Positions 2,423 to 28,223 of a stretch of 34,556 nt of DNA are shown here, in pieces (position 1 is the stretch's first letter; each line of letters starts with the position of its first letter). Both the position numbers and the translations under genes were made by a program. The notes below the pieces were generated by a model. The model had not been told where the DNA came from and did no database searches. It worked only from the letters and a program-made list of their open reading frames with translations. This DNA is from Chloroflexota bacterium (GTDB lineage Bacteria; Chloroflexota; Dehalococcoidia; Lucifugimonadales; UBA1127), in the NCBI GenBank assembly GCA_028873745.1, contig JAPPNT010000027.1, positions 10,793-45,348 on the forward strand. Direction: 5' to 3'.

Positions 2423-2638
2423 CTAGGCTCCCGTGCGCCGGCCCGCGACGCCCTCGGTGAAGAAGTAGACCGTGAGTCCGAAACCCATCATCATCAGCCC
2501 AACGCCGCCCATGACGTAAATGATCCCCGGACGCCCCTCGGCGATGACCGCGATGAGCACGGCCAGTCCGAACAACGCTCCCCCGAGGGACAGCAGGAAG
2601 CGGGGCGCGTACTTCAGGATGTCTTCCGGCTGTATCAC
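2423..2638 (-). CDS. Small hypothetical membrane protein (two predicted TM helices)
   Basis: 71 aa with two hydrophobic stretches (FLLSLGGALFGLAVLIAVIA; VMGGVGLMMMGFGLTVYFF). The GTG start overlaps the hemQ stop as GTGA, which indicates translational coupling. No family recognised. Confidence 0.5.
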   Translation of the reverse strand: MIQPEDILKYAPRFLLSLGGALFGLAVLIAVIAEGRPGIIYVMGGVGLMMMGFGLTVYFFTEGVAGRRTGA

Positions 2639-3345
2639 CCGATTCCTCGCAGGATGTCGTCCAGCCCCCGGGCGATGCAGGTGAATATGGGCGTGTCCCG
2701 CTCCGTGTACGGCCGGGCCTCCGCTTCACGCAGCTCCATCAGCAGGTCCAGGAACTCGTCGATGTTGGACACGTCGAAGGCCACCACGTGCTCCTGGTCG
2801 TCGATGCCGAAAGAGTACGTCGTGTTGTTGCGCACGCCCGGGTACTTGTGCCCGATGGCGAAGTGCTGGTTCATCATCTCCTGCCGCCGCTCCAGCGGAA
2901 GCTGGTACCACTCAGCCGTCTTCACGAAGGGGTAGACGACAAGGTACGGGTGGTCGGGGCTCTGCGGCCGGATCGCCTTCGCGCGCCCCTCCTGCCCCGC
3001 GTGCACGTGGTCGTCAACGTACGGCGACGGCCGTGTCAGCGAGAGGTACGAGTGTGCCGTCCGCAGGTATTTTCCGAGGCCCGTGCCGTTCACCGCCGCC
3101 GCAAACTCCTGCATGCCGTCGAGCGTCCACCCAAGCAGCCACAGCAGGAAGTCGGCGTCTCTGCGCAACCCCACCAGCGAATACGTGCGCACCTCTATGC
3201 GGTCGGAGAACTCGCCCACCATGGCGGAGAACTCGCGGCGGTGGTCGTCGCGCTCGGCGTCGGACAGGCGGCGCCATGCGGGGTCCACCTGGTAGAAGTT
3301 GTACTTCACCACCTGCCGGCGCATCGTGGGCTGTGCCTCGGTCAT
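2635..3345 (-). CDS. hemQ: Chlorite-dismutase-family protein, probable coproheme decarboxylase
   Basis: ...KYNFYQVDPAWRRL...LVVYPFVKTAEWYQLPLERRQEMMNQHFAIGHKYPGVRNNTTYSFGIDDQEHVVAFD... is typical of HemQ/ChdC. I chose ATG 3345 (MTEAQPTMRRQ...) because GGAGGG lies 5-10 nt upstream. The 57 residues further upstream in the track ORF are not family-like. Confidence 0.8.
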   Translation of the reverse strand: MTEAQPTMRRQVVKYNFYQVDPAWRRLSDAERDDHRREFSAMVGEFSDRIEVRTYSLVGLRRDADFLLWLLGWTLDGMQEFAAAVNGTGLGKYLRTAHSYLSLTRPSPYVDDHVHAGQEGRAKAIRPQSPDHPYLVVYPFVKTAEWYQLPLERRQEMMNQHFAIGHKYPGVRNNTTYSFGIDDQEHVVAFDVSNIDEFLDLLMELREAEARPYTERDTPIFTCIARGLDDILRGIG

Positions 3346-3434
3346 CCCGCCCTCCAGTGGATGCCTGCCCTCGCGGGCAGGGTCGGCTACCATTATAGCT
3401 GCTGGCGGCAATCGCCCGCGCAATTGGTCATCGC

Positions 3435-3463
3435 TTGACACGCCAGCTACGGAACCATAGACT
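3435..3463 (+). promoter_or_regulatory. Sigma-70-type promoter: TTGACA, 17 nt spacer, TAGACT
   Basis: TTGACA at 3435-3440, exact 17-nt spacer, TAGACT at 3458-3463. It lies in the hemQ/sir divergent intergenic region and points toward sir. Confidence 0.45.
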
Positions 3464-3472
3464 AGCGGCACT

Positions 3473-3523
3473 ATGGTGACTGCACCAGTCAACAACTGTT
3501 GCCGCCGACTGCACACGGGGTAG
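3473..3523 (+). CDS. Candidate leader peptide MVTAPVNNCCRRLHTG (tandem Cys codons)
   Basis: ATG at 3473 lies 9 nt after the -10 hexamer and has no SD, so it is near-leaderless. Codons 9-10 are TGT TGC (3497-3502). Stop TAG at 3521-3523, 22 nt before an intrinsic terminator. Too short for coding statistics, so the call rests on context only. Confidence 0.35.
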   Translation: MVTAPVNNCCRRLHTG

Positions 3524-3545
3524 CCGAAATCCGATTCCGGTGCAG

Positions 3546-3581
3546 CCCCGCTCGCCGATGATCTGAGCGGGGTTTTGTTTT
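3546..3581 (+). terminator. Intrinsic terminator/attenuator hairpin inside the sir 5' leader
   Basis: CCCCGCTC (3546-3553), 11-nt loop, GAGCGGGG (3565-3572), then TTTTGTTTT (3573-3581). It sits between the promoter at 3435-3463 and the sir ATG at 3603. It is not oriented as a terminator for any minus-strand gene. Confidence 0.55.
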
Positions 3582-3602
3582 GGAGGCCATTGAGGAGGGA
3601 CC

Positions 3603-5369
3603 ATGACCACGACAGACAGCCGATGGAAGCCCAACGTCATCATCCCCGTGCTTCCTGAGGAGATCGACCACTTCGACAACGAGGCCAAGCGCTTCCGCTC
3701 CGGCGACCTCGACGCCGCCGAGTTCCGCGCCTTCCGCCTGCGCCAGGGCGTCTACGGCCAGCGCCAGCCCGACAACCAGATGATGCGCGTCAAGGTGCCC
3801 CTCGGCCGCATGACGCCCGACCAGCTCGAGTCCCTTGGCCGCATTGCCCGGGACTACACGCCGCTCAAGCGCGGCCACATCACCACTCGCGAGAACGTCC
3901 AGTACCACTTCCTCAACCTGGACGACGCCGCGGAAGTCATGCGCACGCTGGGCTCGACGGGCCTCGGCAGCCGCGAGGCGTGCGGCAACACCGTCCGCAA
4001 TGTCACGAGCTGCCCCCTGACCGGCGTCTGCCCGGAGGAGGTCTTTGACCCCAGCCCGTACGCCGTCGCCTACGTTCGCAACTTTGTGCGCCGCGACTTC
4101 ACCAACAACATGCCCCGCAAGTGGAAGACGGCCTTTTCCGGCTGCACCCACGACTGGGTGATGACCGCCATCCACGACATCGGCTTCCACGCGGTCATTC
4201 GCGAGGTGGACGGCGTCGAGCGCAAGGGCTTCCGCATCGTCGTTGGCGGCGGCACCAGCATCCAGCCGCTCATCGCCCAGGAGCTCTACGAGTTCGTGCC
4301 CGTCGAGGACTTCCTCAAGGTCTCTGAGGCGTGCCTGCGGGTATTCAACGCCGCGGACGAGCTCCGCAAGAACAAGATGAAGGCCCGCGTCAAGGTCCTC
4401 ATCAACCGCATCGGCATCGACGCCTTCCGTGAGATGGTCGAGAAGGTCATGGAAGAGGAGCTCGCCGACGTCACTTACGACCTGGATGAGCTGTCCGCCG
4501 GTGAGTACGAGGACCCGACTCCTCCGCCGCCCGCCGACTACCCGCCCTTCCCGAATGACGACCCCGCCTTCGAGCGCTGGCTGGGCAGCAATGTCATCGC
4601 GCAGAAGCAGGACGGCTACAGCGCGGTGTTCATCAAGCTGCGCCTCGGCAACGTCACCGACGAGCAGTTCTTCCAGCTTGCGGACATCTCCCGCGACCTC
4701 GCCGGCAGCATCCGCATGACGTTGCGGCAGGACATGACGCTGCAGTGGGTGCCCAACAACGCCCTCCACGCCCTGTACGAGAAGCTCGCCGCCGTCGGCA
4801 TGGCCGAGCCCGGCGCCAACGAGCTCTCCGACGTCGTATCCTGCCCCGGCACCGAGAGCTGCTCGCTTGGCATCACCTCGTCGCAGGGCTTGGCCGGCAA
4901 TCTTTGGGACGCCCTGAGTGAGTACAAGTCCCACGACGAGCTTGCCCGCAACATCCGCATCAACATCTCCGGTTGCCCGGACGGCTGCGGTCAGCACCAC
5001 CTCGGCAACATCGGCTTCCACGGCGCCGCCATCAAGGTCGGCAGCGCCCAGGTGCCCGCCTACGAGGTCTACATCGGCGGCAGCCAGATCAAGCCCGTCC
5101 GCATCGGCCAGCACCTGCGCGTGAAGGTCCCCTCCAAGCGCATCGAGGAGGCCATCAAGCTCATCGTCGACGACTACGTGGAGAACCGGAACGACGGCGA
5201 GATCTTCAACGACTACGTCGACCGCATCGGCGCTGCGTCCTACGAGGATCTCCTGAAGCCCGTCTCCACCGTCCCCGAGCTCGGCCGCGAGACCATCCAC
5301 TACTACATCGACTGGAACCGCGACGTCCTCTACAAGGTGGAGCGCGGCGAGGGTGAGTGCGCGGCGTAG
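3603..5369 (+). CDS. Ferredoxin-dependent sulfite/nitrite reductase (siroheme/4Fe-4S, SirA/NirA family)
   Basis: 588 aa with two nitrite/sulfite reductase repeats. Cluster/siroheme cysteine motifs SCPGTESCSLG and ISGCPDGCGQHHLGNIGFHG. SD GAGGAGGGA upstream of the ATG. Sulfite is favoured over nitrite only by the Cys-codon leader context. Confidence 0.85.
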   Translation: MTTTDSRWKPNVIIPVLPEEIDHFDNEAKRFRSGDLDAAEFRAFRLRQGVYGQRQPDNQMMRVKVPLGRMTPDQLESLGRIARDYTPLKRGHITTRENVQYHFLNLDDAAEVMRTLGSTGLGSREACGNTVRNVTSCPLTGVCPEEVFDPSPYAVAYVRNFVRRDFTNNMPRKWKTAFSGCTHDWVMTAIHDIGFHAVIREVDGVERKGFRIVVGGGTSIQPLIAQELYEFVPVEDFLKVSEACLRVFNAADELRKNKMKARVKVLINRIGIDAFREMVEKVMEEELADVTYDLDELSAGEYEDPTPPPPADYPPFPNDDPAFERWLGSNVIAQKQDGYSAVFIKLRLGNVTDEQFFQLADISRDLAGSIRMTLRQDMTLQWVPNNALHALYEKLAAVGMAEPGANELSDVVSCPGTESCSLGITSSQGLAGNLWDALSEYKSHDELARNIRINISGCPDGCGQHHLGNIGFHGAAIKVGSAQVPAYEVYIGGSQIKPVRIGQHLRVKVPSKRIEEAIKLIVDDYVENRNDGEIFNDYVDRIGAASYEDLLKPVSTVPELGRETIHYYIDWNRDVLYKVERGEGECAA

Positions 5370-5388
5370 CCTCGTCTCCAGGAAAAGC

Positions 5389-5420
5389 GAAGAGGGTCCC
5401 CTCCACAGGGGACCCTCTTC
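5389..5420. terminator. Bidirectional intrinsic terminator between convergent genes
   Basis: Perfect 14-bp stem GAAGAGGGTCCCCT / AGGGGACCCTCTTC with loop CCAC. Flanked by GGAAAAGC upstream and ATTTCT downstream, so it has a U-rich tail on either strand. Confidence 0.65.
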
Positions 5421-5439
5421 ATTTCTGCATTGTCGGTGG

Positions 5440-5817
5440 CTACCGGCGGAAGCGCCGCGTCAGCTTGTCCCAGAACGACGGCCCGCCGGGCGGCGAGTCG
5501 TACTCCACCGGCTTGCCGCGCCAGTGCAGCTTGTTGTCGGCCCGGTCGGCACGGACGAAGAAGAACGCGTACCCGATCACGCCGGCGACAAGCGCGGACC
5601 ACAGAAAGGCGGTCGCGAGCGTGCCGTCGAAGATGAGCGCGAAGGTGAGCAGGAGAGCCACGGCAGCGATGATGATGCGGCCGGGCGTGATGAGGTTGCC
5701 CGTGCCGGCGGGGCGCTCGGTCTTTGGCCGCCCCGAGCGCCTGGGCCGGGAGTGCGGGGCCTGCGCCTCGGACTGCTCCAGGATCTCTTCGATCTCTTGC
5801 TGGAATCGCTCTGGCAT
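5440..5817 (-). CDS. Hypothetical membrane protein (charged N-terminus, two TM helices)
   Basis: MPERFQQEIEEILEQSEAQ..., then IIIAAVALLLTFALIF and AFLWSALVAGVIGYAFFFV. ATG 5817 is preceded by GGGGGTGG. The track start at 5868 is also possible. No family recognised. Confidence 0.5.
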   Translation of the reverse strand: MPERFQQEIEEILEQSEAQAPHSRPRRSGRPKTERPAGTGNLITPGRIIIAAVALLLTFALIFDGTLATAFLWSALVAGVIGYAFFFVRADRADNKLHWRGKPVEYDSPPGGPSFWDKLTRRFRR

Positions 5818-5953
5818 CGCCCACCCCCTGGGCTCCGCACCTGTGCCATTGTCCCCGGAGCCCTGCAATTGCGAAGACGCCGGATGGGAAGATAGTAGAA
5901 GCGCTGCTCCCTGAGTTTGCGCCGCCGCCCGCCACGAGCAGCGGTGCCTATAC

Positions 5954-5963: not shown

Positions 5964-6130
5964 GTCACAATAGGCGTCAAGTGTCAAGATTTTGTATAAC
6001 CCCATATGCATGTTGCGGCAGGTGCGAAACAAGAGAGTTTGGCCCAAACCGTGACGCCGCTTCCAACGCAAGCCAGACGCCTGTCGAGTACACTGGGCGC
6101 ATCCACATCGCAAACCACCGGGAAGGAAGC

Positions 6131-7543
6131 ATGGCGACTGACCAGGCCGCATTTGCACGCCGCGTTTACCCCCTTGATCCACGGGAGGTCTCCGAGGAGG
6201 AGCTTGCCGTCGTCTTCGCCATGACATCGCGCCGCCCCGAGCCCTTCGACGAGATCAAGGAGATGGTGACGGCCGAGAAGGCGTCGGACTTCCACGAGCG
6301 CTGGGTTCTCGGCTACGGCCACGCCTCCGTCGCCGAGCATGCCGTCGTCCACCTGGCCGTGGAGAACGTCTCCCGGCTCGCGTGTGACACACTGGAGGAC
6401 AACCGACTCGCCTCCTACACGGAGAAGTCCTCCCGCTACCAGGTGCTGGAGCGTGACGCCTTCTACACGCCGCCCGAGCTCGATGACGCGCCCGACCTCC
6501 GCGAGTCCTACACCGCGGCCTGCCGCCGTCTGTTCGACGTCTACCACGACCTCGTCGAGCGCACGCAGGAATACCTCGCCTCTGTGCACCCGCAGCGCGA
6601 GGGTGAGCGCGACGGCGGGTACCGCCTCCGCCTCCGCCGCATCGCCACCGATGCCTGCCGCTTCGTGCTCCCCGCCTCGACGCTGACCAACGTCGGCGTC
6701 ACTATGAACACGCGCTCCCTGGAGCACGCCGTCCGCAAGCTCCTCTCCTCCGACCTGCAGGAGGAGCGCGAGCTCGGCGAGGAGCTGAAGGAACAGGCTA
6801 GGACGATCACGCCAACCCTCGTTCGCTACGCCGACCGCAACGAGTACATCGTCCGCAACCGCGAGGCCCTGCAGGCGCAATCGGCTGTCCTGCAACCGGC
6901 GTCCTCGGCCCCGGCCGCCGGCGCCCGCTCCGTCGAGGCCCGCCTCGTCGACTACCCACGCGACGCCGAGGACCGCATCGTCGCCGCCCTCCTGTACCGC
7001 AATGCCCGCGAGCCGTACGAGACCGTCCGCGCCCGCGCCGAGGCCCTCTCCTCCGGGGAGCGCGAGGCCGTCATCGCCGCCGCCCTCGATTCGCTCGGCC
7101 CCCACGACGCCACGGTGCGGGAGCTGGAGCAGGTGGAGTATACCTTCGAATACCTGATGGACTACGGCGCCTACCGCGAGTTCAAGCGCCACCGCATGCA
7201 GTCATACCTCCCGCAGCCCCTCACCGTCGCCGAGGGGTACGTGGAGCCGGAGCTCTTCCCCGAGAGCGGCCTCTCGGACGCCCACCGTGAGGCAATGGAC
7301 GTGTCCGCAGAGGCGTACGCCTGCGTCGCGGCCCTGTCGCCCCGCCTCGCCGAGTACGTCGTCACCCACGCCCATCTGCGGCGCGTCGTCACGCGCATGA
7401 ACCTGCGCGAGTGCTATCACTACTTCAAGCTCCGCACGCAGCCGCAGGCGCACTTCACCATCCGCGAGGCGGCGCAGCAGGCCATGGACGCCGTCCGGGA
7501 GGTCCACCCGCTGCTCCTTCAGTTCATCAACCTGCGGGAGTGA
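6131..7543 (+). CDS. thyX: FAD-dependent thymidylate synthase, tandem (two Thy1-like halves) form
   Basis: The N-half has GYGHASVAEH and ...NRLASYTEKSSRYQ. The C-half has ...YREFKRHRMQSY... 470 aa is about twice a canonical ThyX. ATG 6131 is preceded by GGAAGGAAG. The upstream 50 residues of the track ORF are not family-like. Confidence 0.8.
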   Translation: MATDQAAFARRVYPLDPREVSEEELAVVFAMTSRRPEPFDEIKEMVTAEKASDFHERWVLGYGHASVAEHAVVHLAVENVSRLACDTLEDNRLASYTEKSSRYQVLERDAFYTPPELDDAPDLRESYTAACRRLFDVYHDLVERTQEYLASVHPQREGERDGGYRLRLRRIATDACRFVLPASTLTNVGVTMNTRSLEHAVRKLLSSDLQEERELGEELKEQARTITPTLVRYADRNEYIVRNREALQAQSAVLQPASSAPAAGARSVEARLVDYPRDAEDRIVAALLYRNAREPYETVRARAEALSSGEREAVIAAALDSLGPHDATVRELEQVEYTFEYLMDYGAYREFKRHRMQSYLPQPLTVAEGYVEPELFPESGLSDAHREAMDVSAEAYACVAALSPRLAEYVVTHAHLRRVVTRMNLRECYHYFKLRTQPQAHFTIREAAQQAMDAVREVHPLLLQFINLRE

Positions 7544-10659: not shown

Positions 10660-11496
10660 CTAGTCTGTCGTGAGCGCCGTGTCCTCGCGGTTGGCCCACT
10701 CGCCCATGGAGCCGTCGTAGTTGCGGACATTGTCGTAGCCCACCAGCCGCAGTGTCAGCAGTCCGTGCGCCGCACGGATGCCGCCTTGTCAGTAGGTGAT
10801 GACTTCCTTGTCCGGCGTCACCCCCGCCGCGTCCAGCAGCGCCCGGATCTCCTCCGCCGACTTCCACGAGCGGTTCGGCTCCGGGTTCATGAAGTTCGTC
10901 CACTCCAGGTGGACCGACCCGGGCACGTGGCCGATGCGCTTGTTCCCGCGCGAGTTCTCTCCCGTCCACTCACCGTCGGAGCGGACGTCAAGGAAAATGA
11001 CGCCCTCGTCGCCGACACGCGATATGCCGTAGTCGAGAGGGCACAGGACGCTGTCATCGACGACGGGGGTGAACGTCGCCGCAGCCGGGCTTGGGATGTC
11101 GCGGGAGATTGGCCGGCCCTCGTGGAACCAGCGCTCCCAGCCGCCGTTGAGCACCTTCGCATTGGTGTGGCCGTAGTGGTTGAGCACCCACCACATCCGG
11201 CACGCCGGCACGCCGCCCGCCGTGTCATACGACACCACCGTCGTGTCCGGCCCGACGCCCAGGTCGCCCATCAGCTTGGCGAACTGGTCCGGCGGCATGA
11301 CGTGCAGCGGGTCGTTGGCGTCCTTGATGAACGGGTTGACCCGAAGCCCGACGGCGCCCTTGATATGGGCCTTCTGGTACAGGTCAAACGTGGCACAGTC
11401 GATGATGCGCACGTTGGGGTCGTCCAGGTGTGCCTCCAGCCAGTCCGGCTCCGCAAGGAGCTCCGGCCTGACGTATCCCGCGGATGACTGCGTCAT
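10660..11496 (-). CDS. Two-domain rhodanese (thiosulfate/3-mercaptopyruvate sulfurtransferase type) with in-frame TGA at the catalytic Cys position; candidate selenoprotein, otherwise a nonsense pseudogene
   Basis: N-terminal domain ...VRIIDC...YQKAHIKGAV... and C-terminal domain ...FLDVRSDGEW...GHVPGSVHLEW... The ORF halts at TGA (10789-10791) after ...DKEVITY. The same frame then continues QGGIRAAHGLLTLRLVGYDNVRNYDGSMGEWANREDTALTTD to TAG at 10660-10662. That gives Y-[TGA]-QGGIR, the rhodanese C-x-x-G-x-R active-site loop. ATG 11496 is preceded by GGGGAGG with a 6-nt spacer. Confidence 0.6.
10756..10783 (-). promoter_or_regulatory. SECIS-like mRNA hairpin immediately 3' of the in-frame UGA
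   Basis: The mRNA reads CGGCAUCCGUGC-GGC-GCACGGACUGCUG. This forms a stem of 12 pairs (one G-U) with one bulged C and an apical GGC at about +21 to +23 from the U of UGA. Folded by eye only. Confidence 0.4.
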
Positions 11497-11615
11497 AAGG
11501 CGCCTCCCCTTGGTTTCCCGCCAGTATACTCCACACGCATCGCGCTCATGCACTATCATAGAGGTGCGAATGCAATGGCGGCCGGCAGGCCGTGGCCAAA
11601 AGGCTGGGAGGATTC

Positions 11616-25690: not shown

Positions 25691-27054
<1,364 letters not shown>

Positions 27055-27058
<4 letters not shown>

Positions 27059-27531
27059 GGGGTTTCCTCCAGGAGGGCCACGGCATGCACGGCGATGCCC
27101 TCGCCGCCGCCGATGGCCCCGAGGCCGTCATTGGTCTTGGCCTTGACGTTTATCTGCTCCGGTCTGGCCGACAGGCACTCCGCTATGCACGCTTGCATGG
27201 GCGCCAGGTGCGGCTTCATCACGGGCTTTTCAGCTATGATTGTAGCATCCAGATTGACCAGCCTCCAACCGCTGCCGCCCACCAGCGCCGCCACGCGCCG
27301 GAGCAGCTCCCGGCTGTCCGCGTCCTTGTACGCCGGATCGCTGGAGGGGAACTGGCCGCCGATGTCGCCGAGGCCGGCGGCGCCCAGCAGCGCGTCGATG
27401 ACGGCGTGCAGCAACGCGTCGCCGTCGCTGTGGCCCAGCAGGCCGCGGTCGTGGGGGATGGTGACGCCGCCGAGCACCAGGGGACGGCCCTCGACCAGGC
27501 GGTGAATGTCGTACCCGTTCCCTATGCGGAT
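27055..27531 (-). CDS. ispF: 2-C-methyl-D-erythritol 2,4-cyclodiphosphate synthase; start assigned to a non-canonical ATC
   Basis: IRIGNGYDIHRLVEGRPLVLGGVTIPHDRGLLGHSDGDALLHAVIDALLGAAGLGDIG...DSRELL... aligns along its length with IspF (E. coli MRIGHGFDVHAF...). The first in-frame ATG/GTG/TTG is GTG 27477, which would delete the Zn-binding D/H motif. ATC 27531-27529 aligns with Met1 and has GGAGG (27543-27539) 7 nt upstream. Confidence 0.8.
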
Positions 27532-28223
27532 GGCGACACCTCCGCCATACCGCGGGCGGCGAGGATGGCCTCGGCCATCGCCAGGTCCTGCGGCGTGGTG
27601 ACCTTCAGGTTGCCGTAGTCGCCTTGAAAGACGCGGACGTCGTGCCCCAGCCGCTCCAGCATGGTGGCCTCGTCCGTAACGTCGTCATTCGACTGCGCGA
27701 AGGCCCGTTCGAGCAGATCGCGGCGGAACACCTGCGGCGTCTGCACGGCCCACAGCCGCGAGCGGTCCAGTGTCTCGACGACGCGGTCGCCGTCTTCCAC
27801 GACCTTCACCGTGTCCGTCACCGGCACCGCAGCAACGGCCACGCCTGTCGCCTTCGCCGCCTCCAACCCGCGGTAGACCATCGAGCGCCCGACGCACGGC
27901 CGCGCGACATCGTGGATGACGACCCATTCCACCTTCGGCAGCCGCTCCAGCCCGCGTCGGACCGAGTCTTGGCGTCGCTCGCCGCCGGTGCAGATGCTCC
28001 AACCGACGGACCACCCACGCCGCATGAGCACGTACTGTCCCTGCTCCAGGTTGCGCTCAGACACGACGATCATGCCGGCGGCCACCTCCGGCACCGACGC
28101 CATCACGCCGAGGCAGTGGTCGAGGATGGGGCGACCGCGTAGATTGGCGAACACCTTGTCGATGCCCTCCATACGGCGGCTCTCGCCCGCCCCCACCAGA
28201 ATGACGCCAATGTGGCCCGGCAA
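27522..28223 (-). CDS. ispD: 2-C-methyl-D-erythritol 4-phosphate cytidylyltransferase
   Basis: ...GVILVGAGESRRMEGIDKVF...VIHDVARP...VPVTDTVK... is IspD-like. TTG start preceded by GGAGAAG. The 3' end overlaps the inferred ispF start by 10 nt. Confidence 0.85.
   Translation of the reverse strand: MPGHIGVILVGAGESRRMEGIDKVFANLRGRPILDHCLGVMASVPEVAAGMIVVSERNLEQGQYVLMRRGWSVGWSICTGGERRQDSVRRGLERLPKVEWVVIHDVARPCVGRSMVYRGLEAAKATGVAVAAVPVTDTVKVVEDGDRVVETLDRSRLWAVQTPQVFRRDLLERAFAQSNDDVTDEATMLERLGHDVRVFQGDYGNLKVTTPQDLAMAEAILAARGMAEVSPSA

Follow-up and report, generated by a model that had tools for sequence, protein, structure and literature searches.

A probable ribosome-mediated cysteine attenuator in the leader of the sulfite reductase gene sir from an uncultured Dehalococcoidia bacterium

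The leader of the sir gene was analysed in a stretch of 34,556 nucleotides from a Chloroflexota bacterium (contig JAPPNT010000027.1 of assembly GCA_028873745.1, positions 10,793 to 45,348), and this whole stretch is referred to as the window. The sir gene encodes a ferredoxin-type sulfite/nitrite reductase, and its leader of about 130 nt was found to contain a promoter, a mini open reading frame (ORF) with two adjacent Cys codons, an intrinsic terminator and a competing hairpin (the antiterminator), followed by the Shine-Dalgarno (SD) sequence of sir. From its anatomy, its conservation, its compensatory changes and its in-silico folding, the leader is very probably a ribosome-mediated transcription attenuator that senses Cys-tRNA. 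The features of the leader are given below in window coordinates; the family denotes the related leaders that were collected from other genomes.

3435..3440, + strand: -35 hexamer TTGACA, invariant in 17 of the 17 promoter-proximal family members
3458..3463, + strand: -10 hexamer TAGACT (TAnnnT), with a spacer of 17 nt in the window
3470, + strand: putative transcription start from promoter geometry, an A after C at the 7th nucleotide past the -10 hexamer, giving a 3-nt leader
3473..3523, + strand: leader mini-ORF MVTAPVNNCCRRLHTG, without SD, open in all relatives
3497..3499 and 3500..3502, + strand: putative regulatory Cys codons TGT and TGC, 20 nt upstream of GGGG
3509..3514, + strand: CUGCAC, possible anti-antiterminator strand that pairs with GUGCAG at 3540-3545, in the window and its closest relative L001 only
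3517..3521, + strand: antiterminator 5′ strand GGGGU, within and next to the stop codon TAG; GGGG is invariant in the family
3523..3541, + strand: antiterminator inner hairpin from folding, GCCG (3523-3526) with CGGU (3538-3541) and an 11-nt loop
3545..3554, + strand: shared segment G-CCCCGCUCG, which is the antiterminator 3′ strand (3545-3549) and the terminator 5′ arm (3546-3554)
3564..3572 and 3573..3581, + strand: terminator 3′ arm UGAGCGGGG and U-tract UUUUGUUUU, from folding and conservation
3592..3599, + strand: sir SD GAGGAGGG, kept in alignment A1, ahead of the sir ATG at 3603
3603..5369, + strand: sir, the presumed regulated gene, with two NIR_SIR and two NIR_SIR_ferr domains (Pfam)

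The promoter was found exactly where an earlier, sequence-only reading of this DNA had placed it (3435-3463), with a score of 10/12. The scan gave two hits in 4 kb, this promoter included, whereas shuffled sequence would give 0.3. The nine nucleotides AGCGGCACT between the -10 hexamer and the ATG at 3473 contained no GGAGG-like motif, and the CA at the putative start was found to be invariant in alignment A1. The mini-ORF, which like its position and its lack of an SD can be read directly from the sequence as had been claimed, contained the 16 codons ATG GTG ACT GCA CCA GTC AAC AAC TGT TGC CGC CGA CTG CAC ACG GGG followed by the stop codon TAG at 3521-3523. Among the intergenic ATG ORFs of 5-40 codons in the window (34.5 kb), MVTAPVNNCCRRLHTG was the only one with a CC or CxC motif; the possibility of a chance ORF was rejected on this ground and on its conservation.

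The sir orthologues were gathered from one genome per species, together with a protein search followed by contig look-ups. The same leader architecture was found at all sampled loci with a sir product 55-97% identical to that of the window, giving 18 distinct leaders, and all named sources were metagenome-assembled genomes (MAGs) of Dehalococcoidia or Chloroflexi; the genomes closest to the window were MAGs labelled Dehalococcoidia. The sequence-only reading had named a lack of conservation in relatives as one possible refutation, and the mini-ORF, the Cys run, the GGGG and the terminator were indeed found in 18 leaders, down to 55% identity of sir. The leader peptides, with the identity of the sir product to that of the window, were as follows.

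Window (100%): MVTAPVNNCCRRLHTG
L001-L006 (90-97%): MVTVLVNNCCCRLHTG, MVTVSFNNGCCRPA, MMTLHNTVCCCRPTMG, MVTILSNNGCCRPA, MVNVSVNNGCCRPA, MLTIPVNICCCRPA
L143/L144 (82%): MLTHLINNPCCCTPLG
L007 (82%): MSTQLTNNHWCSTP, with a single Cys, an outlier within its clade
L008 (68%): MSIAISTFCCCCPP
L014 (66%), two tandem copies: MLMYNSTFCYCWCA and MQEGMAHLMMCKAHPCGCCRT
L009 (64%): MSINISSFRCCCA
L010 (60%): MLTRHSVNCCCT
L011 (57%): MSINYSFNCCCSL
L139 (56%): MVTRRQSDICCCT
L013 and L015 (55%): MEITVYAYTCACPERL and MSRTNNRPRCGCRSGP

Of the 266 leader codons, 48 (18.0%) encoded Cys; the share of Cys in the window proteins (5,987 residues) was 0.89%, which makes the enrichment about 20-fold. The TGT and TGC codons were equally frequent (24:24) and were found to be swapped between orthologues, which points to a constraint on the tRNA being read and not on the nucleotides; TGY occurred far less often out of frame (5.6% and 1.5% in the two alternative frames). 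At least two Cys codons were present within the last nine codons in 17 of the 18 leaders, with the first Cys 4-11 and the last Cys 2-7 codons ahead of the stop. The first Cys codon was found 15-24 nt upstream of the invariant GGGG (hand count), just past the 3′ edge of a ribosome. The GGGG directly followed the stop codon (UAG-GGGG) in 14 leaders and formed the last sense codon ahead of the stop in the other four (window, L001, L003 and L143). The peptide outside the Cys run was divergent, and the ORF stayed open in 18 of the 18 leaders.

The 17 promoter-proximal copies contained TTGACA, a spacer of 16-18 nt, TAnnnT and 7-10 nt to the ATG, without SD. The term near-leaderless, used in the sequence-only reading, is probably right, since this distance in every such copy implies a leader of 0-4 nt. 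The TAnnnT boxes close to start codons are generally recognised as a mark of leaderless genes, and such boxes have been described for Chloroflexi (PMC3160421). The second copy of L014, located downstream of the first terminator, was the only copy not adjoining a promoter and was found to contain a GGAGG-rich SD, as would be expected if translation of the mini-ORF is the point.

The region 2160-2500 of L014 was found to contain two complete Cys attenuators in tandem, each with its own terminator. The first (MLMYNSTFCYCWCA, 2202-2246) was promoter-adjacent and without SD, with a terminator to about 2312, and the second (MQEGMAHLMMCKAHPCGCCRT, 2329-2394) contained the GGAGG-rich SD, with a terminator to about 2460. 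The near-identical antiterminator sequences of the two copies suggest a recent duplication and a sharper two-step response.

The genes that follow the element were found to vary. The attenuator of L010 was not directly before sir and headed an operon in which a putative sulfate exporter of the YeiH family and a small ORF precede sir, and that of L139 preceded sir, cysH, APS kinase and ATP sulfurylase genes (sir-cysH-cysC-sat). The sir orthologues of 56-57% identity were found to head sir-cysH-cysC-sat operons. The contexts in L010 and L139 tie the element to sulfate assimilation and support the reading of the enzyme as a sulfite reductase. A second Cys-rich ORF was present in both loci. In L010 (740-850), MPTPSGFTRHRMGETQESSSSLLLTVVLSPCSCACT with an SD was found between the attenuator terminator and the next gene, and in L139 (2605-2817) an ORF of 70 amino acids with an SD and 9 Cys in 17 residues (CFCTCRCTCSEQGCCAC) was found after the terminator; these ORFs could be translational Cys sensors or could encode small Cys-rich proteins. 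The tandem copies of L014 and the second ORFs of L010 and L139 suggest a two-stage cysteine sensor. A scan of 795 kb of collected sequence for a short ORF with at least two Cys in the last nine codons followed by a strong terminator returned sir-linked leaders only.

The terminator was found to contain CCCCGCTC (3546-3553), a loop of 11 nt and GAGCGGGG (3565-3572), followed by TTTTGTTTT (3573-3581), and its end was 21 nt from the sir ATG. It had been described in this place by the sequence-only reading, ahead of the SD and start codon of sir, and was folded by ViennaRNA into a stem of 9 bp with a free energy (dG) of -15.4 kcal/mol. It was missing from the terminator scan of the tool because the scan allows loops of up to 8 nt. 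In 15 sequences (alignment A2), 98.3% of the cells of the terminator were paired, above the shuffled and slid controls, and compensatory changes were found in 3 of the 8 pairs (G-C to U-A, C-G to U-A and U-A to C-G). The terminators of the family contained a GC-rich stem of 8-11 bp followed directly by 5-9 U nucleotides, and the U-tract was present in all members.

The optimal antiterminator of the window contained GGGGU (3517-3521) paired with GCCCC (3545-3549) around the GCCG:CGGU stem, with a dG of -11.8 kcal/mol. The terminator and the antiterminator are mutually exclusive, since CCCC at 3546-3549 is used by both. The pairing of CGGGGUAGC (3516-3524) with GCAGCCCCG (3542-3550), as drawn in the sequence-only reading, is real and has the same core, whereas the inner register is slightly different in the computed optimum. 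In the covariance-model alignment 92.9% of the antiterminator cells were paired, with compensatory changes in 5 of the 10 pairs and a covariation score of 0.298 against 0.141 ± 0.025 for shuffled alignments (0 of 500 reached it), and the slid controls were paired in 32-57% of the cells. This alignment was used in place of MAFFT/RNAalifold, which misaligned the inner helices of the antiterminator segment and gave three invariant pairs. The copies of L010 and L139 were missed by the covariance model at E up to 1, and three spurious weak hits were excluded.

The inner stems were found to be nearly clade-specific, containing AGCCG/CGGCU, AGGCGC/GCGCUU, UGUGCUCCC/GGGGGCACA or UAGCG/CGCUG, and ACGCC/GGCGU, CGGUGA/UCACCG or GCGCUCU/AGAGCGC in further relatives. 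When checked without an alignment, inner segments from the divergent clades proved more stable than dinucleotide shuffles (z of -2 to -4.2). The region between GGGG and CCCC varied freely in sequence and length across the family. No Rfam match was found in 3200-3800 at E up to 10, with none near the gathering score, and none was found in the whole window at the gathering score; the families covered include SAM and other sulfur-related riboswitches, T-box elements and amino-acid leaders.

The GGGG and the CCCCGCUC/GAGCGGGG blocks show an invariance that is unusual for a plain terminator, so that a conserved RNA bound by a protein or a small ligand in the manner of a riboswitch may be considered, or a mini-ORF that encodes a functional Cys-rich micropeptide, with the link to stalling being a coincidence. 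Such an RNA would sit poorly with the lack of a conserved unpaired core or junction, with the free variation between GGGG and CCCC and with the Rfam result. The frame, the start 7-10 nt after the -10 hexamer and the stop at GGGG were kept in 18 of the 18 leaders while the peptide outside the Cys run was not, and a frame kept in a diverging peptide speaks against both the peptide function and the non-coding reading. This explanation is therefore very improbable.

The switch was simulated in 15 leaders with transcripts that ended one base before the terminator 3′ arm, in which the ribosome was represented by forcing the nucleotides from -15 to +12 of the A site to be unpaired. With the stop codon in the A site, the GGGG:CCCC antiterminator was formed in 0 of the 15 leaders, and with a Cys codon in the A site it was formed in 15 of the 15, for at least one Cys position. 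With the second Cys codon in the A site it was always formed in the window; with the first, it was the minimum free energy (MFE) structure when the footprint edge was at +13 or beyond, and was otherwise within 0.7 kcal/mol of the MFE. The alternative structures predicted by the sequence-only reading were thus reproduced by the constrained folds of the truncated transcripts.

The competing structure at the first-Cys stall in the window was the pairing of CUGCAC (3509-3514) with GUGCAG (3540-3545), which was also part of the MFE structure of the full window leader; CUGCACC at 3480-3486 was present as well. The complementarity of CUGCAC and CUGCACC to GGUGCAG, as described in the sequence-only reading, is thus present, but it was found in the window and L001 only, so that it is a lineage-specific addition outside the conserved mechanism and was rejected as a core element.

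In the absence of a ribosome the antiterminator was formed by default in 12 of the 15 leaders, which makes the element a three-element attenuator and not a copy of the four-segment trp layout; since no conserved 1:2 or anti-antiterminator hairpin is present, the untranslated RNA defaults to read-through in most members. The same default would be expected if the attenuator senses the general status of translation or coupling, any slowing of the lead ribosome giving read-through and the Cys codons being incidental or merely slow, and L007 works, if at all, with a single Cys codon. This explanation was judged quite unlikely, though marginally less so than the ligand or micropeptide one, given that the Cys codons are strongly enriched, are all that is conserved in the peptide, keep a fixed distance to the stop and number two or more in all leaders but one, and that the regulated gene, and the whole operon in relatives, makes sulfide for cysteine synthesis.

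With Cys-tRNA sensing as the preferred reading, transcription would start about 0-4 nt before the AUG of the 16-codon leader ORF, which would be translated without an SD. When Cys-tRNA is plentiful, the lead ribosome would reach the UAG at 3521-3523 and physically cover GGGG at 3517-3520; CCCC at 3546-3549 would then be left without an upstream partner and would pair with GGGG at 3569-3572 to form the terminator, and the polymerase would stop in the U-tract at about 3573-3581 to give an attenuated transcript of about 110 nt. Under scarcity of Cys-tRNA, a stall would occur with UGU or UGC (3497-3502) in the A site, the 3′ edge of the ribosome being about 7 nt short of GGGG. The hairpin of GGGGU, the inner stem and GCCCC would form once CCCC is transcribed and would pre-empt the terminator, giving read-through into sir, so that the terminating ribosome would be the sole obstacle to antitermination. 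The transcription start, the translation of the mini-ORF, the stalling at the Cys codons and the termination or read-through in vivo, as well as the response to cysteine, are what we infer from this arrangement.

Several points were found to weigh against this reading. The basis is entirely computational, and every genome compared is a MAG from an uncultured bacterium. Whether or not ribosome masks were applied, folding of the complete leader always favoured the terminator, so that the decision must be kinetic, i.e. co-transcriptional; known attenuators likewise fold to the terminator when the complete leader is used, and folding of the complete leader was dropped as non-discriminating in favour of the truncated transcripts, which only mimic the co-transcriptional kinetics. 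No conserved pause or 1:2 hairpin was found that would synchronise the ribosome and the polymerase. The covariation of the antiterminator was derived from an alignment that had been fitted to a model and leans to the structure of that model, and the outer GGGG:CCCC helix never varies in the family and hence gives no covariation signal. The inner segments of the window clade were no better than shuffles (z of about -0.4 to -1.2), and the antiterminator of the window itself was modest and weaker than in distant relatives, with an inner stem of 4 bp (z = -0.4) and a dG of -11.8 against -15.4 kcal/mol for the terminator. Two relatives contained non-adjacent Cys (CAC and CGC), and L007 (106-150) contained HWCS (TGG TGT AGT) in the place of CCC (TGC TGT TGT) of its sister L143. 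The marine AT-rich L140 (2790-3000; also L141 and L142), with sir 52% identical, was found to keep TTGACA-18-TAGACT-9-ATG followed by a leaderless ORF of 31 codons without Cys codons and without a terminator.

In L007 the Cys run is decayed or weakened while the hairpins are intact. In L140-L142 the attenuator may have been lost, or the leaderless short ORF (sORF) may have another role.

The enterobacterial trp, his, leu, thr, ilv and pheA attenuators were found to share with the sir leader an ORF rich in codons of the end product, an intrinsic terminator before the first structural gene and a competing hairpin, formed with the terminator 5′ arm and masked when the ribosome reaches the stop of the leader. 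The sir leader differs from them in its putative sensing of cysteine, in having no SD and a start 0-4 nt from the putative 5′ end, in belonging to Chloroflexota (Dehalococcoidia) and in lacking a conserved segment-1:segment-2 pause or anti-antiterminator hairpin. The trp-type logic proposed in the sequence-only reading is retained in its central part, as the freeing of GGGG by a stall and its masking at the stop are backed by conservation and constrained folding, whereas the four-segment layout is not conserved.

A pattern scan of metagenomes (TAGGGG-N18-40-CCCCGCY-N8-20-RGCGGGGNNTT), aimed at copies of the attenuator ahead of genes other than sir, returned at least 120 loci. No Cys sORF was present among the loci listed, which contained generic terminators and some leader peptides of the branched-chain type. 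The latter, for example one ending in LVVVLVAVSDAP, showed the same geometry of stop codon and GGGG and served as an internal control of the pattern. In L026, L042, L067, L101, L130 and L133, ORFs with Val/Leu runs (ending in VLLVVVLVAVSDAP or LVLVVVMVVVTDAP) were followed by TAGGGG and a terminator, and these ORFs resemble leader peptides of branched-chain amino acids.

The closest described Cys system is that of the mycobacterial polycysteine leaderless sORFs, Ms5788A/Rv0815A and Rv2334A upstream of cysK1-cysE (Canestrari et al. 2020, 10.1101/834739; Mol Microbiol 114:93), and cysteine attenuation mediated by an upstream ORF (uORF) was stated by these authors as undescribed before their work. 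In these sORFs, which respond to cysteine by ribosome stalling, the SD of the downstream gene is paired with the Cys tract, and control is translational, without an intrinsic terminator (10.1101/834739). The sir leader has in common with them a 5′ sORF, putatively (near-)leaderless, with a C-terminal Cys tract near the stop, upstream of sulfur and cysteine genes, and would share the principle of sensing. It differs in the terminator and antiterminator between the sORF and the gene, in an SD that is not involved, in the phylum and in the lack of sequence similarity.

A translational control of the mycobacterial type may be proposed from this likeness, in which the position of the ribosome exposes or hides the ribosome-binding site of sir and the hairpin with its U-tract is not a terminator, since the described system acts on translation and not on termination (10.1101/834739). 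However, the sir SD at 3592-3599, 10 nt past the U-tract, paired with neither the Cys codons (3497-3502) nor the terminator arms in any fold, so that the defining feature of the mycobacterial family was not found, and the hairpin is a textbook intrinsic terminator with compensatory changes and a U-tract throughout the family. Control of this kind is as improbable as a riboswitch-like RNA or a micropeptide.

The leader ORF, the enrichment in Cys codons, the intrinsic terminator and the exclusive antiterminator, which are the features of a leader-peptide attenuator, were all found in silico. The 1:2 hairpin of the four-segment layout, a hallmark of trp that members of the class need not have, was found in the window and L001 only. 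From the presence of the class features that can be tested in this way and the lack of the SD pairing of the mycobacterial family, the element was assigned to the classical leader-peptide attenuators, of which it would be a leaderless, three-element variant for cysteine.

Two further predicted systems were compared. The uORFC-8-2 motif, a predicted ribosome-mediated attenuator located ahead of the cysS gene in Rhodobacterales (Brewer et al. 2021, PMC8632094), has, like the sir leader, a short ORF with a tandem pair of Cys codons, after which come a stem and a U-run. It differs in its cysS target, in its occurrence in Alphaproteobacteria and in its Cys codons 14-15, which lie inside the first stem, and it was not described as leaderless. 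In the cys and cbs operons of Actinobacteria, candidate Cys leader peptides without a detectable terminator hairpin have been described and a dependence on Rho has been suggested (Seliverstov et al. 2005, PMC1262725). These are also short ORFs with Cys runs near the stop, ahead of genes for sulfate assimilation and cysteine, whereas the intrinsic terminator of the sir leader is strong and conserved. Full-text literature searches on cysteine, leader peptides or attenuators together with Chloroflexi or sulfite reductase gave no description of the present element. The leaders likely represent an undescribed Dehalococcoidia family of minimal three-element Cys attenuators, with a (near-)leaderless poly-Cys mini-ORF, a stop codon on the 5′ strand of the antiterminator and an untranslated state that is ON.

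The sir gene is apparently monocistronic in the window. A long hairpin with a stem of 15 bp (5388-5421) was found between sir and a convergent hypothetical gene and could terminate both. The convergent gene (5440-5868, - strand) encodes a hypothetical protein of about 130-142 amino acids without a Pfam or NCBIfam match; genes of similar size (125-131 amino acids) were found in a similar position after sir in L007, L008, L011, L013, L015 and the marine L140, and the product in L011 was 32% identical to that of the window (E 1e-11). The divergent gene upstream of sir (2635-3345, - strand) belongs to the chlorite-dismutase/HemQ family and was found to adjoin sir in the window, L009, L013 and L143. 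It contained a perfect TATAAT on the - strand (CATTATAGC on the + strand, about 3391-3399), kept in several relatives, and an inverted repeat, GCCTGCCC-TCGC-GGGCAGG (3363-3384), in its 5′ untranslated region. The molybdate transporter genes modABC were found before it at the start of the window, and the assignment of this ABC transporter to sulfate was rejected in favour of the molybdate ModABC.

No Cys mini-ORF was found upstream of cysS (25691-27058, - strand) or upstream of the rhodanese gene (10789-11559, - strand) of the window. The cysS gene came after ispD-ispF in one gene string (25691-28223, - strand), and in the relative P0018 the ispD-ispF-cysS string was immediately divergent from sir. 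A ThyX homologue of 520 amino acids (5981-7543, + strand), roughly double the normal size and matched twice by Thy1, was found to resemble a tandem-fused flavin-dependent thymidylate synthase; its counterpart in L007 contained 472 amino acids.

With this element, cysteine would join the amino acids under classical terminator-based leader-peptide attenuation; the attenuators known for cysteine so far are only the mycobacterial translational variant and a predicted cysS motif in Rhodobacterales. The logic of terminator-based attenuation would operate on an mRNA without an SD, and the mycobacterial style of sensing by a leaderless poly-Cys sORF would, if true, be combined with the enterobacterial style of intrinsic termination. 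The design rule, in which a GGGG abutting the stop codon is preceded by Cys codons at a distance of 15-24 nt, describes an element of about 110 nt that is easy to test, and it may serve as a model in metagenome searches for regulatory sORFs that lack annotation. The attenuator also argues, on independent functional grounds, for this NirA/Sir-type enzyme being an assimilatory sulfite reductase rather than a nitrite reductase. For sulfur assimilation in this large uncultured group of Dehalococcoidia, it would, if true, be the first mechanism of regulation to be proposed.

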